A model generated the notes under the pieces. It was not told where the DNA came from and made no database searches. It was given only the letters and a program-made list of their open reading frames with translations. Source: Parcubacteria group bacterium Licking1014_17 (GTDB lineage: Bacteria > Patescibacteriota > Minisyncoccia > 2-02-FULL-40-12 > IGHO2-01-FULL-4-A). From it: DNA of 64,000 nucleotides. The position numbers were made by a program, and so were the translations under genes. Where the stretch lies: assembly GCA_007376485.1 (NCBI GenBank), contig VMGJ01000003.1, positions 81,252-145,251 of the forward strand. The letters are read 5' to 3'. Below, piece by piece: positions 8,649-59,873 of this stretch (position 1 is the first letter of the stretch; each line of letters opens with the position of its first letter).

Positions 8649-8668
8649 CCAGGAGAGAAATGAAGTAA

Positions 8669-9077: not shown

Positions 9078-9133
9078 CGGAAGGGCCAAGGGGCCAAGAA
9101 CCAAACGAGGTTCAAGTCCCCAAGGTCAGAGGA

Positions 9134-9799: not shown

Positions 9800-9925
9800 T
9801 GTCGTTTCTCCTTTTTCTGCCAGAGGGCTACTATCCGTAGTCATAGCCAGGAAATTCCGATAAATCAGGATCTCCTGGCTATGACTACAATCGCAAGAAG
9901 TATTAAAGAGCGACATTATGTTCTA

Positions 9926-9962: not shown

Positions 9963-9987
9963 AAAACCCTCATTCTATAAGGGTTTT
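9963..9987. terminator. Hairpin aaaaccct-cattctata-agggtttt, probably the terminator of the upstream dedA-GT2 unit. An identical copy lies at 36268-36292
   Basis: Stem flanked by T-runs, and the same sequence sits upstream of target gene 2. Confidence 0.4.
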
Positions 9988-10085
9988 TCATGTAAAACAA
10001 GCCATTGTACTTTGAGGGTTACTGAAGTTGTCGCCCCATCCTCATTAAAACTTCAGAGGGTAAAGCAGTATTTGTACAGTCCAGG

Positions 10086-10238
10086 CTGGAATGTCTTTTC
10101 GGCCGCTTAGAGGCTATGGATTGCTTGGTCGGCAATAGTATAATATCTGGCGTATAGCCAACTATTGCCGAATCCACAGCCTCTAGCGAGTGAGATATTC
10201 CGCCGGAGAATCTTGAACGTGCCGAAAAGACATTCCGG
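10086..10238 (+). ncRNA. Structured element copy B (three-way-junction family)
   Basis: The outer stem ctggaatgtcttttcggc / gccgaaaagacattccgg contains a T-G wobble that is only compatible on the plus strand. It has a long internal imperfect hairpin and a second small hairpin with loop cgccgg. Confidence 0.4.
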
Positions 10239-10275
10239 TCGGACGGGTAGCCCCGAAAAGCGCAATGGCGAGTTT

Positions 10276-10890
10276 TTATTTTTTACCCTTTTTTATATGC
10301 CTCCAAACATACCAAACCAAGCCGATGACGATTAGAGCAATAATTACATACTCAAACTTTTTGAAATACGGCGCCAGGAATTCCCAGTTATTGCCGGCTT
10401 TAAAACCTACGTAGGCCAGCCAGAGATTCCACAAGAATGAGCCCAAAATAGTAGGCAACAGAAAACGCCAGAACGGAATGCGCATGCTACCCAGAGCGAT
10501 ACCACTGACGGTTCTGATGCCAGGCAGAAGGCGCGAAACAAACGCCACCCAAAGCCCGTGCTTCGCCGCCCATTTGTCCACCTTTAAAATATCATCCGTA
10601 TGAATAAACAAAAAATGCCCGTGTTTTTCCACCAAAGGCCGCCCGCCATACCAGCCAAGAAGAAATATTAGCGAAGAGCCGAGTGTATTCGCCAACGTAG
10701 CCGCCAACATCACCAGCCAAAAATTAAATCTCCCCGTTGCGGCCAAAAATCCCGAAAACGGCAGGACAATTTCGGAAGGAATCGGAATCAGGGCGCTTTC
10801 CAAAAATTGGGTAACAAAAATGCCGGCGTAGCCGAAATGGGAAATAACTCCCAACGCCCAACTGGCAAGTGATCCTAAAATGCCGCCCAT
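10276..10890 (-). CDS. DedA/SNARE-associated family membrane protein
   Basis: 204 aa, multi-TM, carrying the FLESALIPIPSEIVLPFSGFLA motif region. Confidence 0.8.
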   Translation of the reverse strand: MGGILGSLASWALGVISHFGYAGIFVTQFLESALIPIPSEIVLPFSGFLAATGRFNFWLVMLAATLANTLGSSLIFLLGWYGGRPLVEKHGHFLFIHTDDILKVDKWAAKHGLWVAFVSRLLPGIRTVSGIALGSMRIPFWRFLLPTILGSFLWNLWLAYVGFKAGNNWEFLAPYFKKFEYVIIALIVIGLVWYVWRHIKKGKK

Positions 10891-33591: not shown

Positions 33592-34590
33592 CTATATCAT
33601 CGGATTCCCCAAATTGGCAATAATTCCCCTAAGTTTGAAAGTATTCCCATGTTTCAATAGCCCCAAATATGAATTGACAGTTTCTGTTCTCGGATTTGCC
33701 TTGATTCTTTTCAATATTCTTCTTTTTGTTGACGTCCTCAAAATCCTGTGATTTGGGAAAGTAATCCAGCCGAGAAAATCAATGCCCGAAGAAAGAGTCT
33801 TAATAAATATCTTTTGGGGATGCAATCTTAAATTTAATTTTTGTTCCAGATATTCGCTAACTGGTTGGATAATTTGTTCAAGCCATGGCTTATTTTCGGA
33901 CAAAATCACAAAATCATCGCAATATCTTATGTAATAGCGAATTTTCAGTTTGTGTTTAATAAATTGGTCAAATTCATTCATATAGACATTCACCAAAAGC
34001 TGCGAAGTCAGATTGCCGAGCGGCAGACCGATGCCGAAGTAGCCCGAACTGAAACTGCCAATAACTTCCTTTAACAACCAAATAATGTTTTCATCGGGAA
34101 TATATCTTGAAATGATTTTCAATAAAATCGTATGGTTAATATTGGCAAAGAATCTTCGGATGTCGCATTTCAAAACCCAGCAGGTTCTTGTGTTGTTCCG
34201 GCTGACTTTACGCGCAAAATAACGAAAACGATTTATAGCTTTGTGTGTGCCTTTATTTAATCGGCAGGAAAATGAATCGGAAATAAACGTTCTATTAAAA
34301 AATGGATACAATATCCGGTAAACCGCGTGGTGCAACAGCCGGTCACTGACGCTTGCCTTGTGAATATTCCTCGGTTTCGGGTCGCAGATATTGAATGCTT
34401 GATAATCGCCATGCCTATATGTATGATTTACCAAATCTCGGTGTAATTCCAAGATATTGTCCATTAAATTAAACTGGAATTCCTGAACGTCCCGCCTGTG
34501 TCTTTTGCCCCGCAGAAATTCTTTCCATGCTTCCAAAATGTTCTCAATACTGATAATATCTTCAAAATTATGAGCCAATTTGATTTTCAT
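33592..34590 (-). CDS. DGR reverse transcriptase (cassette 2). The ORF track extends it to 34767, but the homologous start is MKIKLAH at 34590
   Basis: About 88 percent aa identity to RT1, with the same YCDDF and LGNLTSQ motifs. Confidence 0.85.
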   Translation of the reverse strand: MKIKLAHNFEDIISIENILEAWKEFLRGKRHRRDVQEFQFNLMDNILELHRDLVNHTYRHGDYQAFNICDPKPRNIHKASVSDRLLHHAVYRILYPFFNRTFISDSFSCRLNKGTHKAINRFRYFARKVSRNNTRTCWVLKCDIRRFFANINHTILLKIISRYIPDENIIWLLKEVIGSFSSGYFGIGLPLGNLTSQLLVNVYMNEFDQFIKHKLKIRYYIRYCDDFVILSENKPWLEQIIQPVSEYLEQKLNLRLHPQKIFIKTLSSGIDFLGWITFPNHRILRTSTKRRILKRIKANPRTETVNSYLGLLKHGNTFKLRGIIANLGNPMI

Positions 34591-34982
34591 AAAAATAGCC
34601 CTATAAGCCCCCCCCCAGGGTTTCGTTGCCGATATTACAAAGGTTGGTTTCGGCATACAAGCTGTGGCATGAACATCTGTCGCATTTTCCCAAAACCTCA
34701 CGATATACGCTCGGCGGGAAAATTGACAGCTATTTTGTAGACGCCGTCGAAGCGATTCACACCGCAAGTTATCTTGGCAAATCAGAGAAACTCCCTTGGA
34801 TCAGGCGCGCGATAACAAAACTTGATGATCTGAAATTCTTTTTGCAAATCGCTTGGGAACTCAAGGTATTGGATAACAAAAAATACATAGCACTTTCCGA
34901 GCCGCTGGCCGAAATTGGCCGAATGCTGGGCGGATGGATGCGGCAAACGGAGTCGGCAAAAACAAAACCGAACCTGTTATAG
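34498..34982 (+). CDS. avd: Avd-like accessory gene (cassette 2). It appears frameshifted at a C9 tract. The N-terminus MSQFDFHKNSPISPPP (frame A) and the body from 34626 (frame -1) are rejoined by one extra C
   Basis: The body carries SRYTLGGKI...IGRMLGGW. The poly-C is at 34608-34616. Confidence 0.7.
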
Positions 34983-35002
34983 GTTCGGAGAAACTTTGCT
35001 TA

Positions 35003-35126
35003 CTTGCGGCGAGCGAGGAACCGGCAGTCGCCGTCCCACTTGTTACCGAGGTAATTGAGGTTCGCGTTCCGCTCGTTGGCGTTCCTGTAGACGTACACGA
35101 CGTTCCGGTTGCCGTTGCGGTCCTGC
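35003..35126 (-). repeat. DGR template repeat TR2
   Basis: At least 17 mismatches to 35478-35602, all at plus-strand T (minus-strand A) positions of the TR. Confidence 0.85.
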
Positions 35127-35384
35127 TGTGTGCACGGTACCATCTATGCCACTATCCTTTGAATACTCTCGGGACTGAATCGTATTTGGGAGCATAACTC
35201 CGCCAGTACCGTACACCAAGTAGCTTTGTTTTTTGAGATACTGTGAAAATCACTGGCCGGAGGCGTACCCACGGCCACTCCGTTTTACGCAGTTCTGGAA
35301 TTCGGCCGTTTGCAGTCGTAACCGCAAACATATCAGCCTATTATCCGTGATTTACTATACTCACTATTTTCAAAAATGAAAGAG

Positions 35385-35420
35385 CGCCTCGTCCGGAAGA
35401 CCCGAACGAGGCGCAAGAGT
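35385..35420 (-). terminator. Hairpin plus T-tract about 65 nt downstream of VR2 (the target 2 terminator, or a homing hairpin)
   Basis: gcgcctcgt...acgaggcgc stem followed by TCTTTCATTTTTG on the minus strand. Confidence 0.45.
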
Positions 35421-35468
35421 CCAAGGCACTCAAGATCTTGAAGACCTGAGCGCGCAAGGACCCAAGGA

Positions 35469-36113
35469 CTACTTCTGCTTGCGGCGAGCGAGGAACCGGC
35501 AGTCGCCGTCCCACTCGCCACCGAGGTAATCGAGGGACGCGCACCGCTCGTCGGCGTGCCTGCAGACGAACACGACGCACCGGCTGCCGTGGCGGTCCTG
35601 CCAGTGCTGGCCGATGGCCGGGATCGGGAACTCCCGCTGGAGCTCCGGCTTCTCGGCGCCGACGGTCAAGTCCTCGTAGGCGTCGGCGGGCTCGAGGTCG
35701 AGCTTCGCCAGCTCGGTGAGCACCTGCTCGTCGCTCATGTCTCGCCCGAAGTGGACGAGGACGAGGTCGCTCTTGACCCTGCCCTTGAGGCGCGGCGGGA
35801 AGTTCTTGGCGTTGACGTTGCCGTTCTTCCAGTCGTACTTCCCACGCTTGAGCAGATCGGCTATGTCCTCGTCGTAGTCGATGACGTGGCAACCGAGCTT
35901 GGTGATCGTGGGGTCAGGGTAGATCGGGGCGAGGCCGAGGACCTTCCGCAGGGCGTTGCGCTCGGGCAACGTTCCCTGCTTCGAAGCCTCAATCACGTCG
36001 GCGACGATTCCGCTATCGAGCAAGTCCGCCTGGAACTTCTCCACAGTCAGTCCCTTGTCGTTGGCAAGCCGGACAACTTCATTTCCTTGGGCGAGCGTCA
36101 CGTTGTTGGCCAT
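35469..36113 (-). CDS. DGR variable (target) protein 2. It is cytoplasmic and 214 aa. The whole gene is markedly GC-rich relative to its neighbours
   Basis: SD GAAAGGAGGG before the ATG. The C-terminus ...CRHADERCASLDYLGGEWDGDCRFLARRKQK is encoded by VR2. Confidence 0.8.
   Translation of the reverse strand: MANNVTLAQGNEVVRLANDKGLTVEKFQADLLDSGIVADVIEASKQGTLPERNALRKVLGLAPIYPDPTITKLGCHVIDYDEDIADLLKRGKYDWKNGNVNAKNFPPRLKGRVKSDLVLVHFGRDMSDEQVLTELAKLDLEPADAYEDLTVGAEKPELQREFPIPAIGQHWQDRHGSRCVVFVCRHADERCASLDYLGGEWDGDCRFLARRKQK
35478..35602 (-). repeat. DGR variable repeat VR2
   Basis: See TR2. Confidence 0.85.
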
Positions 36114-36382
36114 GACACCCTCCTTTCCTTTGTGGCTATGGAACCACCATAAGCTCCGACGGAATGTCGGTACTCACAGCGTTCCGGTTGCTGATTTTGC
36201 AGGTAAAATCAAGGTACTATGATACCCTATATTATACTAAACTTTACGACAAAAAGCAAGGACACAAAACCCCTCATTCTATAAGGGTTTTTTAATATAA
36301 AGCGAGTCATTATGCTTTGAGGGCTCAAAAAGCACAATAGCGAGACCGCCTAAATTTTGCTTCACAAAACTTGAGCGGGCTT

Positions 36383-36530
36383 GCCAATATGCTTTTTGGG
36401 GCTGTTGAGATTGCCGCTGGTACGGTTTTGTCAATGGCTGAACGAAGTGAACGCCTTGACAAACAGCGGTAATCTCACCAGATGAAATTTTCTCGCTGGG
36501 GAAATTTCAGTCCCCAAAAAGCATATTGGC
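36383..36530 (+). ncRNA. Structured element copy C (three-way-junction family)
   Basis: P1 is gccaatatgctttttgggg / ccccaaaaagcatattggc. P2 is tgagattgccgctg / cagcggtaatctca with a G-T wobble on the plus strand. P3 is tgaaattttc / gaaatttca with the conserved loop tcgctgg. Stems covary with copy A. Confidence 0.4.
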
Positions 36531-36536
36531 AAGTAT

Positions 36537-38807
36537 TTATTCTTCTGTCGCAATCTTTTCATCCAACTTTTCGTCCAAATCCGAACTGACAAGCTGGCTT
36601 GTTGGCACGCCGGGTTTTACGAATACGTCTCTTGGTTTCGCGCCTTCGCCCGGCCCGATAATCCCCCTTTCTTCCAGAATATCAAGCAGACGCGCGGCAC
36701 GGGCGTAGCCGACGCGCAAGCGCCTTTGTAACAGCGACGCCGACGCTTTCTGCGCCTGAATCACAACTTCTCGCGCGTCATTGAACAAAACATCATCAAC
36801 TTCGGCGTCCTCGCCCATCGTCTCTCCTTTTACCGCCGCGTCCAAATCAACTTTAAATTCATCCTCTTTGTTGTATTCGGCAAATTCCTCCAACTGCGAG
36901 GCCTCGTCTTTTATAAACTTAACTACGTCTTTGACTTCTTTTTCGCTGACATACGCCGACTGGACGCGCCGCGGCTTGCTGGTATCGCCGGATTGTAACA
37001 GCATGTCGCCATTGCCAAGCAACCTGTCGGCGCCAGCCATATCAATAATTGTCCTTGAATCAATCTGTGAAGCGACTTGCAAAGCGATTCTTGTGGTGAT
37101 GTTCGCCTTAATCAAACCGGTAATGACTTCAACCGACGGCCTTTGAGTTGAGACAATCAAATGAATGCCGACGGCGCGCGCCATCTGGGCTAAGCGGACA
37201 ACCGCCGCTTCAATATCGCGCCCGTGCGCCGCCATCAGGTCCGCCAGCTCGTCTATAACTATTATGATATATGGCATCAGTTCTTTTTTGGCGTTGATTT
37301 GAATGACGTTATAGGAATTGATGTCGCGCGAACCGCTGGCGGAAAGTTTTTCGTAACGCCGTTCCATTTCATGAACCGCCCAGCGGAAAGCGTTCACGAC
37401 TTTTTTCGGGTCGGTGATAACCGGAGTGATGAGGTGGGGGATGCCGTTGTATAAAGACAGTTCCACTCTTTTCGGGTCAACCAAAATTAATTTCAAAATA
37501 TTCGGAGAATGCTTATATAAAAGCGAAAGTAAAAGCGCGTTTATGGCGACTGATTTGCCGGTCCCCGTGGCGCCGGCAATAAGCATGTGGGGCATTTTTT
37601 CCAATCCCGCGTAAACGGGAAAACCGGCTACGTCCCTGCCGACCGCCAAAGCTAAACTGTATTTGCTCTTTTTGAATTCCTCGGCTTCAATCAAATCACG
37701 CAAACCGACAAGCGCCGATTTTTTGTTCGGAACTTCAATGCCGACAAGCGCTTTTCCGGGAATCGGCGCTTCAATTCTTATCGGGTGCGCAGCCAAAGCC
37801 AGCGACAGGTCGTTTTGGAGAGCGGTTATCCGCGACAATTTAATGCCCATCGCGGGGCGCAGAGTAAATTGAGTAACCGTCGGACCGATGGACACCTCGC
37901 CCATCTCCACGTCAATGCCAAAATTGGAAAGAGTCCTTTTTATTATCGTAACGTTGGTGTTGATGTCGCCGGCGTGGGGTTGCTCTTTATCCGAATGAAG
38001 CATTTCAATCGGGGGCAACTCCCATTTGCCGGATTTTGAAGCCCTGATGACAAATTCTTTTTCCTCGTCCGCTTCCGATTTCTGGGCGGGTTTGGGCTTG
38101 ATAATTTGCGGATGGAAATCACCTTTCTGTTTCGCCGCTTCTTCTTCCGCCCTGGCGTCAATAATCTGCGAACCTCTTTTGACGACGACATTGTCCTTCA
38201 ATTCCTGAACTTCTTCGCCTTCTTCTTTTGCCGGCTTCAAGAAAAACAAAATGCTGTGGATTGGAACATTCAAAGCCACCAGAATTGAAATTATCAAAAC
38301 AAGAAAAAGCACCGTGAACGAAGCTATTGAGCCGACAAATCTAAGCAAGGGAAATCCCAAAACCAATCCCAGATAGCCGCCCTGCGTGACGCGAGTGGCG
38401 ATATCGCCCTTGCCGGTTATGTAAAACAAGCCCAGAAATCCCAAAACAAATATACCGGTGCCGACAAGAGCGCTTGAATAAATTCTGCTGTGGATGGATT
38501 TGAGAAAAGCGATGCCGAGTATCACGAGCGCCAGCGGTATGAGGAATATCCCCCAGCCGAAGAGTCGGCTTGCCACAACGGAGAAAACCAAACCGGCGTC
38601 ACCGGCTTTATTCAGAAAAGCCAGAGTTGTAATGACCGCCAAGCCGAAACAGGCGATGCTCCAGATGCCGTTTTTAGTTTCTTGCGCCAACCCAAAAACC
38701 GAAGAGGATTTCCCATTTGAATCTTTATCGCCATTCGCCTTCTTTTTCTTTTTGCGCCCAATCACATATAAAAGGATACCAAGCAATAGGTAAAATGCAA
38801 CCCACAA
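36537..38807 (-). CDS. ftsK: DNA translocase FtsK/SpoIIIE
   Basis: N-terminal TM segments, Walker A GATGTGKS, and a C-terminal gamma domain. Confidence 0.9.
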   Translation of the reverse strand: MWVAFYLLLGILLYVIGRKKKKKANGDKDSNGKSSSVFGLAQETKNGIWSIACFGLAVITTLAFLNKAGDAGLVFSVVASRLFGWGIFLIPLALVILGIAFLKSIHSRIYSSALVGTGIFVLGFLGLFYITGKGDIATRVTQGGYLGLVLGFPLLRFVGSIASFTVLFLVLIISILVALNVPIHSILFFLKPAKEEGEEVQELKDNVVVKRGSQIIDARAEEEAAKQKGDFHPQIIKPKPAQKSEADEEKEFVIRASKSGKWELPPIEMLHSDKEQPHAGDINTNVTIIKRTLSNFGIDVEMGEVSIGPTVTQFTLRPAMGIKLSRITALQNDLSLALAAHPIRIEAPIPGKALVGIEVPNKKSALVGLRDLIEAEEFKKSKYSLALAVGRDVAGFPVYAGLEKMPHMLIAGATGTGKSVAINALLLSLLYKHSPNILKLILVDPKRVELSLYNGIPHLITPVITDPKKVVNAFRWAVHEMERRYEKLSASGSRDINSYNVIQINAKKELMPYIIIVIDELADLMAAHGRDIEAAVVRLAQMARAVGIHLIVSTQRPSVEVITGLIKANITTRIALQVASQIDSRTIIDMAGADRLLGNGDMLLQSGDTSKPRRVQSAYVSEKEVKDVVKFIKDEASQLEEFAEYNKEDEFKVDLDAAVKGETMGEDAEVDDVLFNDAREVVIQAQKASASLLQRRLRVGYARAARLLDILEERGIIGPGEGAKPRDVFVKPGVPTSQLVSSDLDEKLDEKIATEE

Positions 38808-48426: not shown

Positions 48427-48546
48427 ATTGGTCTGGCGGCTACCCACTTTCGCAGTCATACGACCACTATCATAGGCCTTGATGGATTTCACTTCTGAGT
48501 TCGGAATGGGATCAGGTGGGACACCATCGGTATAGTCGCCAAGCCA
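48427..48546 (-). rRNA. rrf: 5S ribosomal RNA
   Basis: The minus strand reads ...CCCACCTGATCCCATTCCGAACTCAGAAGTGAAA... with a helix-I closure. Confidence 0.85.
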
Positions 48547-48983
48547 ATGTTTTTTATTACACGGCAAACAATGTCGCCTTAATGGCAACAGAATAAATTG
48601 GACACTCAACCTTGTAAGGAAATACAGACGATCTATTAGTAACTCTTGGCTCAAAGCCTTGCGGCTCTTACACCTGAGTCCTATCAACGTGGTAGTCTTC
48701 CACGGATCTGCGAAGCCTAATCTTGGGGCCCGTTTCGCGCTTATATGCTTTCAGCGCTTATCGGAACCGAACATAGCTGCCCAGCGCTGCCCTTGGCAGG
48801 ACAACTGGTAGACCAGAGGTTCGTTCATCCCGGTCCTCTCGTACTAGGGACAACCCCCCTCAAGCTTCTAACGCCCACACCAGATAAGGACCAACCTGTC
48901 TCACGACGGTTTGAACCCAGCTCGCGTACCCTTTTAATTGGCGAACAGCCAAACCCTTGGCAGCTTCTTCACCGCCAGGATAG

Positions 48984-49862
48984 GGCGCACATTTATCTTC
49001 TATTACTAGAAGTGCAGACTATATCTTCTCCCGTCTTCCAATCGAAAGGTGGGAGTTGGCGTATTATAGCAGTTAAAAAACTGCTATCCTCTCGCAATAG
49101 CGAGAAAGTCGTTACGGGGTAAGAGAAACTTTATACAATAGACTATCTAAAATATACGGCTTGATGATTTCACAAAACTTTTGCGATGATCTTTCCGGAA
49201 TATATATGTTGAATGTTTTACCCTTTTTATGGATTGCCGCTACGATTCCGAAATTCATCTTCAGACAATCCACTAGCATTTGCTGTTCTTGATACGAAAA
49301 TATATCCGTATTAAGTCTCAGCGCATTACAATCGTTCCGTTTATATCCGTCGTCCATTACCCAAACCGCCAGCGATAATGGTTCAATAAGAATTTCTTGA
49401 ATATTATCAGGAACTATTTTGATTCTATTCTTGTAAAACATATCCCGCCATTCCTGAAATATTCCGTTTGAACATGTCGAGAAATGTAACCGCCTGTATT
49501 CTTTATTCTCTTTCTTGTGGAACGAAGTGATAACTCTGGGCTTACTTGGCACAAGGTTTTTAAATACTTCATATTTCCATAATACATACTCCTTCTGTGC
49601 CATGCCGTGGTCTACTTTTAGACGCACGCCCTTGCCATTTTGCTCCAGATGCCCGTCGCCGAGCATTGTTCCAATTAATATCGCTTTTTGTGTTGCCGTT
49701 AATAGCATACTGTATAAAGCCTCTCCTACTTCCCACGATATTATCCTATCATAGCTGGGTAGCCTCTAATAGGACTCCATCGTTATTAGCCAACGTTGCA
49801 AGTTTATTTCTTAAAAGACACAAACTTGCCAACTCGAATTACTTCGAGTACGGCCCGTTTTG
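48984..49862 (-). mobile_element. Intron-like insertion (putative group I intron) in 23S domain V. It interrupts GATGTCGGCTCA | (T)ATCCTGG and carries a LAGLIDADG gene
   Basis: The exon sequence is contiguous with E. coli-like 23S on both sides, and the boundaries were located by eye. Confidence 0.6.
49112..49708 (-). CDS. LAGLIDADG homing endonuclease (two-motif, monomeric type)
   Basis: [11 protein letters not shown] and [10 protein letters not shown] motifs. Confidence 0.85.
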
Positions 49863-50172
49863 TTGAGCCGACATCGAGGTGCCGAACACTGCCGTCGCTA
49901 TGGACGCTCGGGCAGTACCAGCCTGTTATCCCCGGAGTAGCTTTTATCTGATGATCTTCCCCGTTCCTACGAACAAGGGTCGGTTCACTAACACCTGCTT
50001 TCGCATCTGCTTGACACATCCGTCTCACAGTTAAGCCGGCTTATGCGTTTGCACTATCGCTCCGATTTCCATCCGGAGCTAGCCGACCTTCGTACGCCTC
50101 CGTTACTCTTTAGGAGGCAACAGCCCCAGTTAAACTGCCCGCCAGACACTGTCTTGATGGCACCCTAGAAGG

Positions 50173-50474
50173 GGACGAGTAAACTCGTCCGAGCATCCTG
50201 TAATATTCGTTCAAATATCACAGGATGTTATAGATTATGAGCATTAAAGAATCTAATCTCATTTTTTTGATCGCTGATACAGGTCAGAAAGAGTTTTTCA
50301 TCCCCAAAACAAAAGGGTTGTAAACTCCTGTCGCCTATGTTTTTCAACACCGCATTGGCGACATGTTTCTCTAGATCCGAACTTTCAAAATCAAACTTTA
50401 TCTGCTGTGTTCGGACTTCTGGCCCGCCTTCACATTTATTAAAGTGAAGTTTCAGAAGTATCATTTTATTTCCT
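50173..50474 (-). other. About 300-nt insertion in the terminal loop of a 23S domain-V helix. The arms are ggtggcaccctggaagg and ccttctagggtgcc. It contains an SD-led ORF plus two 3' hairpins
   Basis: The helix arms are perfectly complementary and flank the insert, and the equivalent E. coli helix is a short hairpin. Confidence 0.5.
50228..50464 (-). CDS. Small ORF of 78 aa from the SD-proximal ATG, embedded in the 23S helix-loop insertion
   Basis: GGAAGGAGGAAATAAA-ATG. The ORF ends just before two stable hairpins. No recognisable domain. Confidence 0.4.
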   Translation of the reverse strand: MILLKLHFNKCEGGPEVRTQQIKFDFESSDLEKHVANAVLKNIGDRSLQPFCFGDEKLFLTCISDQKNEIRFFNAHNL

Positions 50475-50770
50475 CCTTCCAGGGTGCCACCAGTTAGAAT
50501 TACAAATGACAAAGATGGGTGTTTCATTGGCGGATCCACGCCTCCCGAAAGAGGCGCTTCAAATCCTCCCCACTACGCTACGCATTGCCGCTCGTAACCC
50601 AATATCAAGCTACAGTAAAGCTTCCGGGGTCTTTCCGTCTTGGTGCGGGTAGTCAGCATCTTTACTGACATTGCATTTTCACCGGGCTAGTGGCTGAGAC
50701 AGTCCCCCAGTCGTTACGCTATTCATGCGCGTGGGAACTTACCCCACAAGGTATTTCGCTACCTTTGGAC

Positions 50771-51522
50771 AGTTCATTCTTTTTATTAGTCTCGGCGGAT
50801 TCAATAAACTCGCCACCGGACAGCCTCATAGTCGCCTATGAGATCGGACTCTATCTTATCGCAATTTTTTGCGATTCTGACGTATTAGTCTCTGGGGATT
50901 CTCGAGATTTTTGGTAATCAGAAAGAGAATATTTTCGCTTCCTGCCCTTACCTTCATTTAACTTCTCTCTTAATTCAATAATTTTTTCAAGACCCTCACG
51001 GGTAAAATGTTTGCCATTCGAGATGGTCTCAACGATTCTTTTGAATATCGAGAAGTTTGTTTTCTTTGAAGATGATAAAAAATTATATCTTTCAAAGAAT
51101 GGCACAATGATATCTCTCAATGAGTTTAGATTATTCACTGAATAATTCCAAACTCCATCTTTTCTTAACTCTAACCTTCCTGCCCCGAAATGTTTTTTCA
51201 TTAACGCCAGGACTGTCTGATCTCTTTGAGCCACATTGAAGGTCAAATAGATTTTCCAGCCAAAGCGGTAGTCATTCCTGGGAATTAACGAAACATTGAA
51301 GCTACCTTCACCATCCACAAAACCGGTAAAATACCAAGCTGTCGAGATGGGAATTTGTTTAATAACTTCTTTCATTTTGTTTAGAGTCTCGAGTCTTTCC
51401 TGCGGATTATCTGCACTGATGTTTTATTACTGATCTTCGACGTTCGGATCTAGTAACATCAGATACTAACCAGACTTTCCCGCATATAGTCAGATTTTAC
51501 AACTACAACTGTCGTTATAGTT
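50771..51522 (-). mobile_element. Intron-like insertion (putative group I intron) in 23S domain IV at the helix-69 region. It interrupts GGTAACTATAACG | GTCCAAAGGTAGCG, near E. coli position 1917, and carries a LAGLIDADG gene
   Basis: Exon junctions were read directly. Confidence 0.6.
50851..51375 (-). CDS. LAGLIDADG homing endonuclease (single-motif, homodimeric type)
   Basis: FTGFVDGEGSF motif. Confidence 0.85.
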   Translation of the reverse strand: MKEVIKQIPISTAWYFTGFVDGEGSFNVSLIPRNDYRFGWKIYLTFNVAQRDQTVLALMKKHFGAGRLELRKDGVWNYSVNNLNSLRDIIVPFFERYNFLSSSKKTNFSIFKRIVETISNGKHFTREGLEKIIELREKLNEGKGRKRKYSLSDYQKSRESPETNTSESQKIAIR

Positions 51523-52554
51523 ACCGCCGTCGTTCACGGGTGCTTCGGGCATCTGCAATGAGCTTGCGCCCACCACTTCAACCGTTAACATTCCCGCACC
51601 GGACAAGCGTCACCCCGTATACATCCTCTTTCGAGTTAGCACGGAGTTGTGTTTTTGATAAACAGTCGCCAGGGGTCTTTCGCTGCGTCCGCGCTTGCGC
51701 GCGGAAGGCCTTATCGCTAACTTACGGCCGCTTTTTTGCCGAGTTCCTTAGCCACTAATCACCCGTTCGCCTTGGTACAATCATACCGGTCCACCTGTTT
51801 CGGTTTTAAATACGTACCCAATCCTTTTGTCTTTAGAAGTTTTTCTTGGAAGCGCGCTCCCTTGAATTTCACCTTGCGATGATTTCCACAACGCTTGGGT
51901 TTCGCACTGAAGCGGCGACACGGATTTGCCAATGTCGCACCCTTACGCCATGAACGCAAATCCTTAATGCGCTCAGGGTACTGCATTTCGTCTCTCCATC
52001 AGAAAGGACCGGGGGGCCGGAATATTAACCGGCTATCCTTCGGCCTCCCCCGCCCGCAAGCGGGGTTATCCTTAGGCACGCCTAACCCTCCGTTGATTGT
52101 CATTGCGGAGGAAATCTTGGACTTTCGGCGAGAGGGGTTTTCACCCTCTTTGCGGTTACTCATCCGAGCATTCTCTCCTCCAAGCGCTCCAGCATGTCTC
52201 ACGGCACACCTTCACTGCGCTTGAAGTGCTCCCCTACCGTATGGAGACTTCGTAAAGGACTTAAGAATAAAAATTCTTAAGAAAAAAAAATGGACGGCGA
52301 GGAAGTAACTATGGTATCCAGGCACCACCAAGGACTTGCCCGGTCCCGGAACCCCACTTTTATACGTGAGGTTCTTAAGTTGGACTTTTAGGGAGCAGTA
52401 GCCATGGTTTAGCGGTCCGCGATAGTTAACTTCCTCGCTTATTTTTCCTTTACGAAATCTCCACACCCACGCATTCGGTACTATGCTTAGCCCCGTTGAA
52501 TTTTCGGCGCATCTTGCCTCGCACGGCCGAAGCCGTGTATCGAATAGTAAGCTG

Positions 52555-52596
<42 letters not shown>

Positions 52597-53227
52597 TATC
52601 TGTCTAAGGCAAAACACTTCCTTCTGTCACTTAGCATAGATTTAGGGACCTTAAGCTGTGGTTAAACGGCTATTCCCGTCGCGACCGTGAAGCTTTGCCC
52701 CCACGGTCTCACTACCGGTCATTACGCCGCGGTATTCAAAGTTTGGTTGATAATCCTACCCAGAGGGCACAGAAAATCATCCAGAGCTTTACCCCCGCGG
52801 TTACTAACCGGCGCTGCCCCTAAAGGCATTTCGGGGAGAACCAGCTATTACCGAGTTCGATTAGCTTTTCACTCCTACCCGCAAGTCATCCGATGATGTT
52901 GCGCTATCAACCAGTTCGGGCCTCCATCCGCCTTTCGGCGAACTTCACCCTGCTCACGGGTAGCTCACCCGGCTTCGGGTCTTTTACAAGCTACGTACAC
53001 ACATATATAAACCGAGGTGCAAACTCACCCGGTTTATATAGATGTGAGTCGCGCTATTAACACTTGGTTTCCCTTTGTCTCCGCCCTGTCGGGCTTAGAC
53101 TTTGCAACTTGTAAAAACTCGCTCGGTCATTCTTCAATAGGCACACCGTCGCCCCTTCGTCTTGCGACGAAAGAGTTCCGGCTCTTTGTAGGCATATGGT
53201 TTCAGTTACTATTTCACTCCCCTCACC

Positions 53228-53270
<43 letters not shown>

Positions 53271-54292
53271 ATCATCAAAAGTATTTAGTCTTGGACCGTA
53301 GTAGGCCCGGATTCACCACGGATAGTCTCGTCCATGGTTACTTAGGTAAAGAGACTTTCGCCTCAATAATACGTAGAGTTCGGAAATTTTCGCTTACGGG
53401 GCTATCACCCTCTTTGGCCGGCCTTTCCAGGACCGTTCTGCTAACCGCCGAATTTGTAACTCTATTTATCTTTGGAGCACAGCTTTCAGCCTCCCATGCC
53501 TCATGGCAGTGGAAGCTGGTCGCCGTGCAGATAATTGTATTATCCCTGCAACACCCGTTTATGTACTTTTAGGTACGAACAGGTTTAGACTATTGCCCCT
53601 TTCGCTCGCCACTACTTGGGGTATCGCGAACAACAAACGCCTGTATGCCTTGCGGCACACGGGTGTTCATTGTTACGTTCGCTTTTTTTTCCTCTGGGTA
53701 CTGAGATGTTTCACTTCCCCAGGTACGCCTCCCGGCTTGCGCCGGAATCACCGCATGTTACTGCAGTGGGGTTTCCCCATTCGGACATCTCCGGATCAAA
53801 GCCCGCTAGACGGCTCCCCGAAGCTTATCGCAGTCACGCCACGTCCTTCATCGCCTTTTGATGTCAAGGCATCCTCCATACGCCCTTGTTATGCATTTCC
53901 TTACAAGGTTGAGTTTCCAATTCCTTGTAGTACTTCCGATACCAAAGCCGCATCTTCTTATACCAGAAGTTCTAATCAGACTTAATTGTTAAAATTCTTG
54001 CCTTTTGCTCCCTGCGGCTGGCTCCTTAAAGAGGCAATCGTAGGAGGCTCTCCTTCGCCGAAAACGTATCATGGCTTCGGGGGAGTGGGCAAATTAGACT
54101 TAAAAACCGCGTCCGGCGCGGCTGTTTTGAATCGCTTCAAGTTAAAAATCAGCACCAGCCGCTTGTTTTTATAAGTCTATTGTATTTGGTATTCATTTGT
54201 CTTTGGTAATTGTAGCAGAACCCAACCTACGGAGTCAATACGTATGTTGATAAGGCGTTGATATCGCTAAGGACATCTTCAGACGGCGCGCC

Positions 54293-54410
54293 CCTCACCA
54301 CTTTTGCCGCCCAGCCAACGATTACTTCCGTTAAAACCTATTGCTGATTGCGCCGTTGGTTTTAAGCTTAAAACCAACGGTAATTTTCTGGCAAAAGTGG
54401 TGGGGGGGGT
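54293..54410. other. Nested inverted-repeat structure about 400 nt upstream of the 23S 5' end. Outer stem ccaccacttttgcc / ggcaaaagtggtgg, inner perfect hairpin ccgttggtttt-aagctt-aaaaccaacgg
   Basis: Read directly. It may be an rRNA leader or processing element. Confidence 0.3.
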
Positions 54411-54425
54411 CAGCGTAAAACTCAA

Positions 54426-55121
54426 CTAATCATTTACATGCTTGCGCAAGTCGCCGATCAACGAATCGGCATGTTCCTTTCCGCCTAACCCAAAGGCAAT
54501 GCCTGCCGCCAACGCGGCGGCGGCGATAATACCCATGATTGCCGTGCGGATAATATCCGTGCCTACTTCAAGTTTCTCCAGAGCGATAAGGAAAGAGAAA
54601 ATCAGCACCGCCCACCTTGCTATAGACCCAAGGAAATTGGCTGACGCCAACTTTGCCGCTTTCATTGAACCGCGCACCAACCCTTCCGCGAACTTGGCGA
54701 CGAGAGCTCCGATAATAAGGACTATCGCCGCTACGAATACATTCGGCAGATAGAGCACGACGGTCTGCAAAAATTCCGTCACCTGATCTAAGCCGAGTAT
54801 ATCAGTGGCAGCCATCAACGATACTATTATGAAGAACCACTTCACCAATTCATAGAAGAATATCGGGCTGTCCAGTTTATATCCGCTCCTGTCCCAAATC
54901 TTTTTGAAGCCGATGCTTTCAAGAATCTTGTCCAGTTGAATTATTCTGACGAGGTGCCAGACAAGCTTCCCGATAATAATGGCGACAATCCAGCCGATTA
55001 TGAAAACCAAAATCGCCGCGATCAGCTGAGGCAGAAAATTCACAACACTGCCCCAAAGACTCGTAAAGGTATCTCTGATTATATCCAAACCACTTGCTCC
55101 GTAACTGTTATACATACTCAC
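54426..55121 (-). CDS. Small polytopic membrane protein with conserved TM-helix repeats (MscS-related / YnaI-like, tentative)
   Basis: 231 aa and about 5 TM helices. Confidence 0.45.
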   Translation of the reverse strand: MSMYNSYGASGLDIIRDTFTSLWGSVVNFLPQLIAAILVFIIGWIVAIIIGKLVWHLVRIIQLDKILESIGFKKIWDRSGYKLDSPIFFYELVKWFFIIVSLMAATDILGLDQVTEFLQTVVLYLPNVFVAAIVLIIGALVAKFAEGLVRGSMKAAKLASANFLGSIARWAVLIFSFLIALEKLEVGTDIIRTAIMGIIAAAALAAGIAFGLGGKEHADSLIGDLRKHVND

Positions 55122-55282: not shown

Positions 55283-57337
55283 TCAAATCAAAAATCTCGC
55301 TATCAGCAGCGCCACGATGTTTGCTACCTTAATCATCGGATTGATCGCCGGTCCCGCCGTGTCTTTGTAGGGGTCGCCGACTGTGTCGCCTGTCACCGCC
55401 GCCTGGTGGGCGGGGGATTTTTTGCCGCCGAAGTTCCCTTCCTCAATATATTTCTTGGCGTTGTCCCAGGCGGCGCCGCCGGAAGTCATTGATATTGCCA
55501 TAAACAAACCGGTGATAATTACGCCAACCAACAGACCACCCAACGCTTGTGGTCCCAGCAGAAAGCCGACAGCGATGGGAATTACGATTGGAATCAAGGC
55601 GGGGATTATCATTTCTTTCAAAGCCGCCCTGGTAACAATATCTACCGCCGCCGCGTAATCGGGTTTTCCCGTCCCCTCCATTATGCCGGCGATTTCCCTG
55701 AACTGCCGGCGCACTTCTTCAACTATCGCGCTACCGGCTTTGCCCACCGCCTTCATCGCCATCGAGCCGAAAAGATAAGGCATCATGCCGCCGATTAATA
55801 AACCGATTAAAACCGAAGGGTTAGTCAAATCAAAACTGATGGGCGCTCCGGCGCCGGCAAATTCTTGGGTGTAAGCCGAAAACAAAACCAGAGCCGCCAG
55901 TCCCGCCGAGCCGATAGCATAACCCTTGGTTACCGCCTTGGTAGTATTACCCACAGCGTCCAACGGATCCGTCGCCTGCCTTACTTCTTCCGGCAGGTTA
56001 GCCATCTCGGCGATGCCGCCGGCGTTATCCGTAATGGGACCGAAAGCGTCAATTGCCAAAACTATCGCCGCCAGCGAAAGCATGCTCAAAGTAGCCAGCG
56101 CCACTCCGTACACGCCGACAAAAATATATGAGCCGAGTATCGCCGCGCAAATCACCACCACCGGCCAGACCGTTGACCGCATGGAAACCGCCAGCCCGGC
56201 GATGATATTTGTGCCGTGCCCGGTCTTGGATGCTTCGGCAATCCCCCGCACCGGTGAGAATTTTTTTGAAGTGTAATAATCCGTAATCCAGAAAATCAAG
56301 CCGGTAACCGCCAGTCCTATTATCAGGGCCAGAAATATTCTATAGCCGGCGATTTCGCCCAGCACCGGTTTCCAGACCAACGTCACGTAAAAAGAAGCGA
56401 CAGCCAGTATCGCTGTAAGAATCAGTCCCTTGTACATTGAACCCATAATACCCCCGTTCGGCCCATTCGATGGACTCAGGGCAGGCAGGCTCGGGGCAAG
56501 CACCTTGGGACCCAATTTTACAACCAGCGAACCTACAATTGACGCCAGCACGCCGATAGCGCCGATAAAAAGCGGAAAGGTAATTATATTCGCGATTGAA
56601 GAATAAAGTAGATTGCCCAGAAGCATTACCGAAATCGTAGAGACCAGATAAGTTTCAAAGACATCCGCCGCCATGCCTGCTGTGTCGCCGACGTTGTCGC
56701 CTACGTTGTCAGCAATGACCGCCGGATTGCGCGGGTCGTCTTCCGGAATTCCGGCCTCAACTTTGCCGACCAAATCCGCGCCGACATCCGCGCCCTTCGT
56801 GTAAATCCCCCCGCCAAGGCGGGCAAAAACCGAAATCAGCGAACCGCCAAAGCCCAAACCAATCAAGGCGGTTACGTCTTTAGTGAACCAATAAAATAAA
56901 GTCAGAACCAGAAGCCCGAGGCCGACCACGAAAAAGCCGGTTACCGCCCCGCCGCGGAAAGCCAGATTGAAAGCGTTGACGATGCCCGATTTTGCCGCTT
57001 CCGCTACCCGCACGTTCGCCCGCACCGCCACAAACATCCCGATATAGCCGGCGAGCGCCGAAGCCGCCGCGCCCACAATAAACCCAATTGCCGTGGTTAC
57101 GCCCAGAAATATATACAGGATTATCGCTACCAAAATGCCGACGACGACTACGACCTTATACTGCCTTTTCAGATAGGCATTCGCTCCTTCGCGGATTGCC
57201 TGCGAGATGGACTTCATCTTTTCATCCCCCTGCGGTTGTTTCAAAACGTTAAGTATCAAAACCGCCCCGTAAACCAGCGCCGCCAGAGCCGACGCCAAAG
57301 AAAAAATTAAAATAGTCATATGGATTAAAACTAACAA
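55283..57337 (-). CDS. hppA: Membrane-bound proton/sodium-translocating pyrophosphatase
   Basis: [14 protein letters not shown] and other V-PPase signature segments, about 16 TM. Confidence 0.9.
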
Positions 57338-58356
57338 ATAGATATCTTTTTTTCCAGTTTTGACTCCATCGCTTTCTGAATATTATAACCGCAACAATGT
57401 TTCAAAACTCCCAGATAAGATTGTAAGTTATCGGTGTTAACTTTTTTCAAAATTCTTCTTCTTGTTTTTGTTCTCAAATTTACGCAGTATGGTCTGACAA
57501 TATAACCCAGAAAATCAATTCCCTGCCGGTATTTTCTAATGATAATTTTTTGCGGATGAAGATTTAATTGTAATATATTATTCAGATAATTGCCGACTAA
57601 AAACGATAATTCGTATAAATAATTTTTATCTTCGCTTAAAATAATAAAATCATCGCAATATCGGAGATAAAATTTCAATTTCAGATGGTGTTTTACAAAC
57701 TCATCCAACTCATTCAAGTATATATTCGCGAATAGCTGGCTTGTCACGTTGCCGAGTGGTAATCCTTTGTCAATATCTTTTTTAAAACTACTAATAATAA
57801 CTCCCAACAGCCAGAGTACGTTTTCGCCGTGAATCTTTCTTTTTATTAGACCAACTAGAATTTCGTGATCTATCGAATCAAAAAATCTCTTGACATCGCA
57901 TTTCAAAGCAAAAATATTCCTGCTGTTGTTTCTGCTCAATTTGCGGCAAAAAGATTTTAATCTCCTGATTCCTCTATACGTGCCTTTTCCCAGCCGACAA
58001 GAATAAGAATCAAAAATAAACCCAGCATCAAAAATTGGATAAAGAATCCTGAAAACGGCGTGATGCAGGATTCTATCTCTAACTGTGGCCTTATGAATGT
58101 GCCGAAGCTTTGGGTCAGTGATGCAAAAAGATTCGTATGGTGAGTGCTGATAAATCTTGGCTGATAGTTGATTGTGTAACCCAAATAGGTTATCTTCCAG
58201 ATTAAATTCGAATTCTAAAATGTCGCGTCTCTTCTTCTTTCCACGCCTAAATTCTTTCCACGCTAAAAACAAATTTTCCAAACTGATTATTTCTCCAAAT
58301 AAATCATGACTCTTATAAGCCCCCCCCCAAAAAAAAACTCCATACCTTTGATTCAT
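57331..58356 (-). CDS. DGR reverse transcriptase (cassette 3). The start is ambiguous, and the ORF as drawn reads through a T9/G9 homopolymer
   Basis: RYCDDFIIL and LPLGNVTSQ motifs. Confidence 0.8.
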
Positions 58357-58671
58357 AGTATTTGCGATTTATACAGGAAAATATATCTTGTCGGACTTAA
58401 AATCCCCAAAAGAGACAGGCTGGGAATTTGCGCAAAAATTGAATCTATATGCCTTGATTTAATAAACTTACTAATTTCAGCCGCTTTTGAATCTAAAGAT
58501 AGGAAATTGTCTTTTCTTACTATTGCTCGTGTTAAAACAGAAATTCTAAAAAGATTGGTCCGGCTTGCGCATGAAATTGACGTAATCAAATCAGTTAATT
58601 ATATAGAATTGGAATCGCAATTGCAGGAAATATCAAAAATGATAAATGGCTGGATCAAATATTTAAAGTGA
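58306..58671 (+). CDS. avd: Avd-like accessory protein (cassette 3)
   Basis: 121 aa, [10 protein letters not shown] encoded by a C9A9 tract, with a C-terminal ...EISKMINGWIKYLK. Confidence 0.8.
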   Translation: MTLISPPPKKNSIPLIHSICDLYRKIYLVGLKIPKRDRLGICAKIESICLDLINLLISAAFESKDRKLSFLTIARVKTEILKRLVRLAHEIDVIKSVNYIELESQLQEISKMINGWIKYLK

Positions 58672-58700
58672 GAAAAACTCCCTAAGGAGTTTTTCTCACA

Positions 58701-58824
58701 AAACTACCTGACGGGCACGGAGGTTGTCGTTGGCATTGCCTGTGTTGTTCCAGTTCACGTTGACCTTGTCATCGCTGTTCCGATACATGTTTGGCACGTC
58801 GCCATCCTTGTTGCGAGAACCCGC
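58701..58824 (-). repeat. DGR template repeat TR3
   Basis: 124 bp at a constant offset of 410 from VR3. At least 20 mismatches, all at plus-strand T positions of the TR. It is AAC-rich in the VR frame. Confidence 0.85.
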
Positions 58825-59034
58825 CTTGGTACCTGACCTCATCTTTCCCACCGAAAATCTTGGAAAAATTTTCTGTGTTGGCTGGCTCCATGGCCAGAAT
58901 TATTCAAGAAACATCTCTAGTTAGAGAATCTTCACCAAGATCAGGCACGTAGTTTCTCTGTTTCAGGCAAACCGCTATCCACTTGGGATCGGTTATAATA
59001 GCCGGGTCTATTCTACAAAAATATAGCAAAAAGA

Positions 59035-59066
59035 GAAAGGCCCGCATCAGTCAGCCACTGCGGGCC
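59035..59066 (-). terminator. Hairpin plus T-tract downstream of target gene 3
   Basis: aggcccgca...tgcgggcct stem followed by TTCTCTTTTTGC on the minus strand. Confidence 0.45.
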
Positions 59067-59102
59067 TTATAAAAAGCGAACGAGAAAAAAGGAATAAGAG
59101 AA

Positions 59103-59873
59103 CTACAGAGAAACTACCTGACGGGCACGGAGGCGGCCGCTGGCAAGGCCTGTGAGGTCCCAGCTCACGTAGACCCTGACATCGCTGCCCCGATACATGA
59201 CAGGCACGACGCCATCCTTGTGGCGAGAACCCGCACATAAAGTTACGTTCTTATTGTCGAGATGGCCACTGGTCTTCCAATTGAACCATCGCCCAAGAAG
59301 AAGCCTTTCAAGAAGATTTATACTATTGATTTTCTTCTCCGCGACCCAACTGGCGGAGAGATTCTTGAGCTCTTCGTCAGCCTCTACGCGGTCACGCGTC
59401 CAGATAACGTAGGGCTTGCCGACGGGCATCCTGACGTTTTTTGTGACGACTTCATCCAAATTAGCATCACAAAATTTCCATTTCTCCGGGAACGAATCGA
59501 AAACCATCTGCATTGTCACACCGGGAACAACCAGCACACCCCAATTAAAACCGGGGGTTACTGGGGGCAGGGGAATTTGCGATGTTTTTCGGATTCTGAT
59601 GTTAAGCGCCTCCTTATAGAAATCCGCCCAGTCCTTCAGGAAGGATTTAACATCCAGCCCCGAGGTGGCATAGGTGATGCCTCCGTTGTCCTGATTAGTG
59701 GCTGTAGTTACGTCACCAACCAGTACGATTTCTGCCTCGCCGCGAAGGGCTTTGAGATGTTGACTGGCAATATTGCCACCACTCAGCTTTTTCACGTCTT
59801 CTGGCGTCCACCCCCCACGCTCAAAAGCGTGATCCAGCTCGGCTGCCTGTCGACTTGTCATAATTGATCCCAT
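59103..59873 (-). CDS. DGR variable (target) protein 3. It is cytoplasmic and 256 aa
   Basis: SD AGGAGA before the ATG. The C-terminus ...GSRHKDGVVPVMYRGSDVRVYVSWDLTGLASGRLRARQVVSL is encoded by VR3. Confidence 0.75.
   Translation of the reverse strand: MGSIMTSRQAAELDHAFERGGWTPEDVKKLSGGNIASQHLKALRGEAEIVLVGDVTTATNQDNGGITYATSGLDVKSFLKDWADFYKEALNIRIRKTSQIPLPPVTPGFNWGVLVVPGVTMQMVFDSFPEKWKFCDANLDEVVTKNVRMPVGKPYVIWTRDRVEADEELKNLSASWVAEKKINSINLLERLLLGRWFNWKTSGHLDNKNVTLCAGSRHKDGVVPVMYRGSDVRVYVSWDLTGLASGRLRARQVVSL
59111..59234 (-). repeat. DGR variable repeat VR3
   Basis: See TR3. Confidence 0.85.

Follow-up and report, generated by a model that had tools for sequence, protein, structure and literature searches.

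An undescribed family of structured intergenic elements with a fixed folding strand in Parcubacteria/Patescibacteria

Why should a bacterium keep one and the same folded structure in several of its intergenic gaps? The question is raised by a stretch of 64,000 nucleotides from Parcubacteria group bacterium Licking1014_17 (assembly GCA_007376485.1, contig VMGJ01000003.1, positions 81,252 to 145,251 of the forward strand), hereafter called the window, in which an initial annotation, made from the letters alone, had pointed out three copies of a structured element (copies A, B and C). To our knowledge, almost nothing is known of the RNA and mobile-element biology of the candidate phyla radiation (CPR; Patescibacteria). 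Our analyses revealed that A, B and C are members of an undescribed family of structured intergenic elements of ~150-200 nt in Parcubacteria/Patescibacteria, that a single strand of fixed polarity is selected to fold, and that the copies are dispersed over the chromosome and are gained and lost between related genomes.

All three copies are present in the sequence where they had been placed, and they share one architecture on the plus strand: besides the closing stem there are a long arm, which has a sub-hairpin and is bulged by 7 nt on its 5' side, and a short hairpin whose loop reads CGCYGG (Table 1). The closing stem comprises 19 bp in copy A (95% paired, with one mismatch; 1290-1308/1410-1428) and 16 bp in copy B (100% paired; 10088-10103/10221-10236), while in copy C it is a perfect 22-bp inverted repeat (36380-36401/36512-36533), so that the stem reaches out to 36380-36533. 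The minimum free energies of the plus strand are -80.1, -75.7 and -78.8 kcal/mol for A, B and C, with z-scores of -11.5, -10.2 and -10.4; none of 200 shuffles was as stable. With copy A as its sole source, a covariance model (R1) matched C and B across the 64-kb window and scored everything else at 18 bits or less, and a degenerate pattern of the shared motifs found exactly A, B and C in the window, with 0.00 matches expected by chance. The compensatory differences between A and C quoted by the initial annotation were all found in the sequence. A and C are not close copies, being ~68% identical in the structural alignment, and B is ~47% identical to either. Copy C is nearer to the copies of other genomes (75% identity), and the idea that A is a recent duplicate of C was rejected on these figures.

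Table 1. Features of the element copies, possible copies and DGR cassettes in the window (DGR, diversity-generating retroelement; TR, template repeat; VR, variable repeat)
Feature	Position	Strand	Remarks
Copy A (A-type)	1290-1428	+	Same three-way-junction fold; source of R1
Copy B (divergent B-type)	10085-10239	+	Core stem 10088-10236; R1 57 bits, R2 89 bits
Copy C (A-type, full element)	36383-36530	+	R1 113 bits, R2 145 bits
Copy C, P1 5' strand and P1b	36383-36401 and 36402-36404	+	Pair with 36512-36530 and 36479-36481
Copy C, long arm	36406-36477	+	P2 is 36406-36419/36464-36477
Copy C, asymmetric internal loop	36420-36426	+	7 nt, GUACGGU
Copy C, P3 with variable tip	36427-36463	+	
Copy C, short arm P4	36483-36509	+	C[GCU]G triloop 36495-36497 over a U-G pair
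Copy C, P1 3' strand	36512-36530	+	Ends 6 nt from the ftsK stop (36537, minus strand)
Outer A-type-like closing stem round copy B	9998-10020 with 10250-10272	+	From the minimum-free-energy fold of 9990-10285
Possible decayed P1-only copy (uncertain)	36303-36346	+	AAGCGAG / GCGAG flanks, read from the sequence
Possible degenerate fourth copy (uncertain)	54291-54407	+	18-bp closing stem, two inner hairpins
DGR1	7269-9916	minus	TR/VR 8670-8803/9138-9271
DGR2	33592-36113	minus	TR/VR 35003-35126/35478-35601
DGR3	57331-59873	minus	TR/VR 58701-58824/59111-59234

The suggestion that the element corresponds to no described RNA family holds against Rfam 15, whose families, among them ribozymes and those of the omega-RNA type or like Y RNA, gave no match at the gathering score over the copies in the window or in the contig L167. 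With the threshold relaxed to E <= 10 on 36280-36560, only chance-level matches appeared, the best reaching 21.5 bits against a gathering score of 70. The initial annotation had named a covariance-model search for homologues as one way to check its proposal, and such a search returned a family. Metagenomes were searched with a pattern specific for the A/C subtype, which matched 56 contigs, many of them from 0.1-µm groundwater filtrates; R1 found full-length copies in nearly all of these, giving more than 55 copies beyond the window in metagenome contigs of Patescibacteria, with strong covariation. A second covariance model, R2, trained on 47 copies, added the divergent B-type, represented by copy B of the window and by L167:11021-11166, L126:1692-1837, L138:4652-4832 and L150:4429-4577. 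Clustering of the flanking sequences resolved ~30 independent sites, or ~40 once later copies were included, and the elements measure 139-195 nt across the family. In species-representative genomes, searched with a looser pattern, most matches were due to chance, the true copies among the matches listed being those of L028 and L094, metagenome-assembled genomes of Patescibacteria (90 bits) and Saccharibacteria (29-41 bits), respectively, and the taxonomic range is thus undersampled. Viral contigs gave chance matches only with the loose pattern and none with the specific one, and BLAST searches of phages and plasmids gave no matches. The loose pattern also caught unrelated Nocardia repeats (L008, L018, L020, L030, L041, L066, L083, L098 and L102), which are near-perfect long hairpins of ~120 nt at about -80 to -90 kcal/mol.

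The family fold is a three-way junction made of a closing helix (P0 and P1), a long arm (P2-P3) and a short arm (P4). The closing helix measures 26-28 bp and is interrupted by a symmetric, G-A-flanked loop; the long arm carries a conserved 7-nt one-sided internal loop, AGCAYGG or UGCWUGG, and P4 is capped by a C[GCY]G triloop over a U-G pair. Covariation was assessed on 47-55 distinct homologues and 59 modelled pairs, with 500 shuffles and with partners slid by 1-3 columns as controls. Standard pairs occupy 90.3% of the cells (47 sequences), against 73% in the shuffled alignments and 43-50% in the slid ones; 50-52 of the 59 pairs show double-sided changes, and no shuffle reached any of these measures, in agreement with the earlier proposal that structure and not sequence is under selection. 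In P1, which is 96% paired, covariation is seen at 18-19 of the 19 pairs, and a single position may show as many as five pair types; in P4 10 of 12 pairs covary, the wobble position being UG in 32 copies, UA in 6 and CG in 5. Since the metagenome pattern fixed part of P2, the loop GG and the P3 stem, constancy at these places is an artefact of selection, and the covariation evidence was drawn from the parts that the pattern left free, namely P1, P4, the tip of P3 and the outer portion of P2. Two further elements on which the pattern placed no constraint are nearly invariant: the AGCAYGG of the internal loop and the C[GCU]G that caps P4 over U-G. On the larger scale, the stems drift freely yet remain paired, while the loops and the junction are constant.

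The ends of the family read (A)AGCGRAG-GCCAUAGUGCC ... GGCACUAUGGC-CGRAGC. The (A)AGCGRAG...CGRAGC flanks resemble 5-nt direct repeats and are better read as the helix P0, with the succession G-C, A.G, N.N, G.A, C-G, G-C. In five independent copies (L125, L137, L142, L130a and L126:1692) the P0 loop is swapped for 5-8 Watson-Crick pairs; the flanks are inverted complements there and thus constitute an extension of the helix, and a target-site duplication was therefore rejected. This result bears on miniature inverted-repeat transposable elements (MITEs), which the initial annotation had offered as an alternative. MITEs have sequence-conserved terminal inverted repeats that are binding sites of the transposase (PMC3184786). 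In the present family no part varies more than the terminal stem P1, and target sites are not duplicated, so the MITE reading fails. In the 64-kb window and next to the copies in ~440 kb of loci, no related autonomous insertion sequence (IS) with a transposase was found. Two further structural ideas were tried and rejected. Pairing between the GCU triloop and the AGC of the internal loop has one compensated case (L094), against uncompensated B-types, L140 and L168. A hammerhead-like or box-C/D-like reading of GGAUGAG...CGAAG meets plain Watson-Crick pairs at this place in A and C.

Copy B, L167:11021-11166 and L138:4652-4832 have GGAUUGCWUGGU...AGUAUAAU in common. The P3 arm string AGUAUAAU of these B-type copies amounts to a perfect -10-like hexamer (window 10139-10150; L167 ~11095; L138 ~4740), and no matching -35 element was found for it.

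Which strand folds? The plus strand of the window, as had been proposed: in the aligned copies 157 pairs are G-U or U-G and 36 are A-C or C-A, and this strand is the more stable one in 42 of the 54 copies. In the hypervariable P1 alone, the ratio of G-U to A-C is 57 to 18. The earlier statement that every mismatch is G-T is correct for A and C and incorrect for B, which has one A-C in the model alignment. Sorted by orientation to the abutting gene, sense copies give 13:3 and antisense copies 44:15; the bias is the same in both, so the polarity belongs to the element and not to read-through transcription of the host. The variable pairs follow wobble paths (e.g. GC:25 / GU:12 / AU:9). Mutation usually produces an excess of C-to-T changes on the coding or leading strand, which in the window is the G-rich minus strand, and this usual bias would yield a skew opposite to the one observed.

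Both strands of A, B and C fold strongly, copy B being about as stable on the minus strand (-77.8 kcal/mol) as on the plus strand (-75.7 kcal/mol). The folding of both strands would suit a cis element of the host mRNA, situated in 3' untranslated or intercistronic regions and serving as a processing site, stabiliser or punctuation, as proposed for REP sequences (repetitive extragenic palindromes) and bacterial interspersed mosaic elements (BIMEs). The copies stand directly after stop codons and between the genes of operons, where the host mRNA must read through them; a stem of 26-28 bp could be processed, for example by RNase III; and in the window copy C has a terminator after it on the minus strand, and copy B a promoter. 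However, at four of five sites the mRNA would carry the complement, in which each of the 157 G-U pairs would turn into an A-C mismatch, and the conserved U-G into C-A, and the equal strand bias of sense and antisense sites also speaks against this explanation, which we consider unlikely. An intrinsic terminator, which is a G+C-rich hairpin with a U-tract directly behind it on the transcribed strand, was rejected as well: what comes after the element on the gene strand is sequence of the CUCCGCUUAA type with no adjoining U-tract, and the terminator scan flags none of A, B and C.

The copies also have a preferred position relative to genes. At 31 of 39 independent sites the gene at the element's 3' end lies on the opposite strand (binomial p = 0.0003), and the stop codon of this convergent gene is at a median of 16 nt from the element, often 0-6 nt from P0, compared with a median spacer of 157 nt on the 5' side. 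In the window, copy A lies 11 nt past the stop of a sugar-transferase gene (1440-2858, minus strand) and 157 nt before a GT4 gene, and copy B lies downstream of a VTT-domain gene (10276-10890, minus strand). Co-directional genes flank the element at 21 sites. The abutting genes are housekeeping genes such as ftsK, recA, grpE (before dnaK), rplC, rplN, rplP, fusA, ftsH and clpP, as well as genes for two penicillin-binding proteins, isoleucyl-tRNA synthetase and glycosyltransferases, together with fpg, trxB, yqeY and dnaE; the copies in the grpE-dnaK and ribosomal-protein operons leave 17-25 nt before the next start codon. The 13-kb contig L138 holds two opposed copies, each antisense to its own neighbour gene, which indicates that orientation tracks the neighbouring gene and not replication; an orientation set by replication was rejected accordingly.

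Variable extra DNA is always found on the 5' side of the element, and in L130, L150 and L167 one to three genes separate copies of the same orientation. Such an arrangement recalls the attC sites of integrons, which the initial annotation had also considered. In an integron-like cassette system, an integrase would recombine the folded bottom strand, and this would explain the one-sided extra DNA. The resemblance extends to the start just past the stop of an open reading frame (ORF), to the folded strand being antisense to this ORF, and to the conservation of structure without sequence over ~150 nt; attC sites reach lengths of ~140 nt and are recognised by unpaired bases. The core sites R''/R' of attC read RYYYAAC ... 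GTTRRRY at its ends, but neither GTTRRRY nor RYYYAAC is found at the ends of the element, no R/L cores, attI or integrase were seen in the window or beside the copies, the copies are scattered over the chromosome instead of forming one array, and the intervening genes (rplN, rpmC, recA, greA) are essential, syntenic genes in conserved order, not cassettes. Membership in the attC class thus did not survive, and we regard this explanation as very unlikely.

Some of the extra DNA may be described as an observation in its own right. In L125, the space between rplC and rplD holds an antisense, hydrophobic ORF of 93 aa with its own terminator (2210-2516, minus strand), which adjoins the element on the 5' side, and similar tiny antisense units adjoin copies in L130 (4060-4140), L132 and L138. 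No conserved same-strand small ORF was found upstream of the element, the ORFs there being scattered and hydrophobic. The AUG of the internal loop is not conserved, and many copies, C included, read ACG.

Comparison with syntenic relatives (69-72% protein identity to the window; one of them a 733-kb scaffold) revealed several of these junctions without the element. The sugar-transferase and GT4 genes are 3 nt apart there (e.g. in L180), the VTT-TIM-PGK genes are contiguous, and the ftsK-recA gap measures 47 or 93 nt; R2 gave no match over ~150 kb of the relatives' DNA. Compared with those genomes, three insertions are thus present in the window: copy A with its 157-nt spacer, copy B together with DGR1, and copy C together with DGR2. 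After ftsK, the window has an A-type element (copy C), and L167 has a B-type. The FtsK protein of the window is 100% identical to that of Licking1014_17.

The three DGR cassettes of the window are paralogous and lie on the minus strand in the order target gene (with the VR), TR and reverse transcriptase; DGR1 and DGR2 at least are insertions, as the flanking core genes are contiguous in syntenic relatives. The initial annotation had noted that two copies sit upstream of DGR target genes. The positions are correct, B lying 170 nt and C 270 nt upstream of the targets of DGR1 and DGR2, but a special tie is not borne out, given that there is no DGR near copy A and no copy at DGR3. When the three reverse transcriptases and the three target proteins of the window were compared by tblastn with the 58 element loci, a reverse transcriptase was found only in L124/L173, where the element lies 260 nt downstream of it. 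About 38 of the 40 other sites have no DGR on their contig and have housekeeping operons instead, and L167, in which no DGR occurs, has elements behind both ftsK (B-type) and recA (A-type). We attribute the proximity of B and C to DGRs to the accumulation of both kinds of insertion in the few permissive gaps between core genes. The DGR link is thus incidental and the element is not a DGR part; that it serves the adjacent target gene or the reverse transcriptase as a signal, in the form of RNA or DNA, as the placement of B, C and the L124/L173 copy might suggest, is extremely improbable. A component of the DGR was rejected in the absence of a constant association at a fixed position. A retron non-coding RNA, which would be expected on the same strand and just upstream of a retron-type reverse transcriptase of its own, was rejected likewise, since the nearby reverse transcriptases are of the DGR type with TR and VR, and most copies have none on their contig.

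The DGR regions display some features of their own. The target gene of DGR1 contains, within its 5' end, a palindrome that is nearly perfect (9837-9888; arms of 25 nt, spacer of 2 nt). Between the element and both DGR target promoters lies a hairpin with the conserved sequence AAAACCC(C)UCAUUCUAUAAGGGUUUUU (36271-36296 and 9965-9990); it has the look of a bidirectional terminator and was flagged on the minus strand. After the hairpin at 9965-9990 comes a strong promoter, TTGACA-17-TATCAT, at 9954-9926.

What, then, is the element? The explanation that we tentatively place first, while giving it well under an even chance, is that of a non-autonomous dispersed element whose folded strand of fixed polarity would be the substrate of a trans-acting, strand-specific protein. 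The substrate would be the folded single strand, either as DNA or as a transcript of the same polarity, and the protein would be encoded elsewhere in the genome. This partner would read the constant loops and the junction, and the long closing stem would need only to pair. In favour of this reading we count the fold with its homologues and covariation, the fixed polarity, the dispersal (including the nesting of copy B and the extra DNA on the 5' side) and the lack of signs of an RNA gene of its own. Such an element may have a lifestyle like that of REP/REPIN, bcr1 or attC. The closest counterparts in lifestyle are bcr1 and REP/REPIN, and in position and strand attC.

REP units are palindromes of 20-40 bp that carry a tag, GTAG or CGTC, unpaired at one of their ends, and most of them lie downstream of coding regions, where the ORFs on either side are unidirectional or convergent (PMC3733652). 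Like REP, BIME and REPIN sequences, which are mobilised by REP-associated tyrosine transposases (RAYTs), the present element is palindromic, extragenic and downstream of coding regions, has G[N]AG at the foot of its stem, and lacks transposon-type terminal inverted repeats and target duplications; in both cases a folded single strand is presumed to be the substrate of an enzyme supplied in trans. In contrast to REP sequences, the copies are highly diverged and their number appears low, at 3 per 64 kb, and no gene for a RAYT (a Y1 transposase, whose gene is itself flanked by the repeats in REP systems) was seen in the annotated parts of the window, which represents 64 kb of a 163.5-kb source contig, and of the short loci. 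Identity with REP/REPIN was rejected, as the element has 139-195 nt and a three-way junction, and as G[GAU]AG occurs on both sides of the stem foot, where it pairs through sheared G-A. The bcr1 repeat of the Bacillus cereus group is an interspersed sequence of ~155 bp whose fold is kept by compensatory changes (PMC3184786). It resembles the present element in its size, in being restricted to a single lineage, in a distribution that is not conserved between relatives, in having no transposase of its own and in a multi-stem fold maintained by compensatory base changes. In other respects the two differ. Whereas bcr1 is flanked by 5-bp direct repeats, CGRAG of the element is a helix extension; bcr1 copies are alike within a genome, while those of the element are 47-68% identical; bcr1 is transcribed, while the element is known here from its sequence; and the two have no sequence relationship.

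Several observations weigh against a dispersed element with a protein partner. The neighbour survey, which covered the 64-kb window and ~440 kb of element-bearing loci, found no transposase, integrase or nuclease beside any copy or anywhere in the window, and the unannotated neighbour proteins had no Pfam or NCBIfam matches. The family copies have neither conserved termini nor target-site duplications. An insertion of the IS200/IS605 type on the lagging-strand template does not fit, as the orientation follows the neighbour gene. The copies within a genome are old and strongly diverged, unlike a recently active MITE or REPIN population. At one and the same site, L150 and L168 differ by 4 double changes, 4 changes through G-U and 1 pair-breaking change, and L146/L169/L157 are similar (some larger counts in this comparison are alignment register shifts, to be disregarded); such compensatory changes between genomes suggest that the fold is needed in place. 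Finally, runs of four or more T occur after the element at 17 of 40 sites on the folding strand, 5-13 nt away, and at 7 of 38 on the other strand, which mildly favours an RNA.

The main rival explanation is a family of small structured RNAs, which would be made from the folding strand and thus be cis-antisense to the upstream gene at its 3' end. The fold would serve as a protein-binding scaffold, and the 3' tail, starting at the stop codon of the neighbour, would provide every copy with an antisense target of its own. The fixed polarity and the wobble paths through G-C, G-U and A-U, which are typical of RNA, fit well with such a role, as do the sheared G-A motifs and constant loops, the constraint on old, diverged copies in place, and the distance of the 3' end from the convergent stop (median 16 nt; 31 sites against 8). 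The transcription signals point the other way. A consensus scan detected no sigma-70-like promoter on the folding strand upstream of A, B and C; the same scan found an 11-of-12 promoter for the DGR1 target gene, so that promoters of this organism look canonical. In a positional test, -10-like hexamers were not enriched upstream (17 against 15 of 38 sites). Same-strand terminators occur within 120 nt upstream at 12 of 38 sites, at distances of 20-80 nt (3, 3 and 0 for the other combinations of flank and strand), and at six sites the terminator ends just 8-14 nt before P0. Moreover, the copies in the grpE-dnaK and ribosomal operons leave little room before the next gene, some copies take up the whole of an operon gap, and more than half of the copies have no T-run. 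On balance, we consider small RNAs possible, if doubtful.

A more specific variant, which is distinctly unlikely, is that the fold is the constant scaffold of guide-like cis-antisense RNAs, with a logic like that of transposon omega-RNAs, the sequence past the 3' end, in every case from the stop-codon region of a core gene, being the specific part. If this were true, the CPR would have a genome-wide, protein-assisted RNA system whose targets are ribosomal, chaperone and cell-division genes at their 3' ends. As a second alternative reading, the family may represent a new class of self-cleaving ribozyme.

The window also contains possible nested or decayed copies (Table 1). The outer stem round copy B (GCCAUUGUACUUUGAGGG / CCCCGAAAAGCGCAAUGGC) resembles the P1 consensus of the family and encloses copy B plus ~85 nt, and its 3' arm begins 4 nt past the stop of the VTT-domain gene. 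The possible P1-only copy upstream of DGR2 is paralogous in position to this outer stem upstream of DGR1, and it has no significant fold (z = -0.95). The occurrence of a P1-only remnant and an outer stem at paralogous positions suggests nesting or internal deletion. In addition, the segment near the 23S rRNA gene may be a decayed fourth copy of the element. Its stem is CCCCUCACCACUUUUGCC / GGCAAAAGUGGUGGGGGG, and it has UUGCCGCC(C)AGC in common with the family; it is located upstream of the 23S rRNA, 19 nt past the stop of a minus-strand gene (54426-55121), folds more stably on the plus strand (-62.2 against -55.8 kcal/mol), and is the top non-family match of R1 in the window (16 bits, E = 0.08).

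The rRNA genes of CPR bacteria typically carry insertions. The 23S rRNA gene of the window (48616-53900) has 5285 nt, compared with 2925 nt in the model, with ~2.3 kb of insertions that include ORFs at 49112-49708 and 50851-51375. An inverted repeat of 26 nt flanks the 5S gene (48431-48543), and the class A RNase P RNA (3915-4389) has 475 nt against a 367-nt model, owing to an insertion. ARAGORN found no tRNA genes in the 64-kb window.

To conclude, our work describes a family whose support from sequence, with ~50 covarying pairs, a clear strand polarity and constant loops, is among the best available for a new structured motif of this kind, and it removes a tempting but wrong link to DGRs. 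CPR bacteria have tiny genomes with very little non-coding DNA; as the shape is kept there, even inside ribosomal-protein and chaperone operons, the element is unlikely to be neutral. The selected strand is mostly antisense to host genes, which makes the choice between RNA and single-stranded DNA directly testable. If a partner protein exists, the covariance model offers a handle on it through co-occurrence across genomes.

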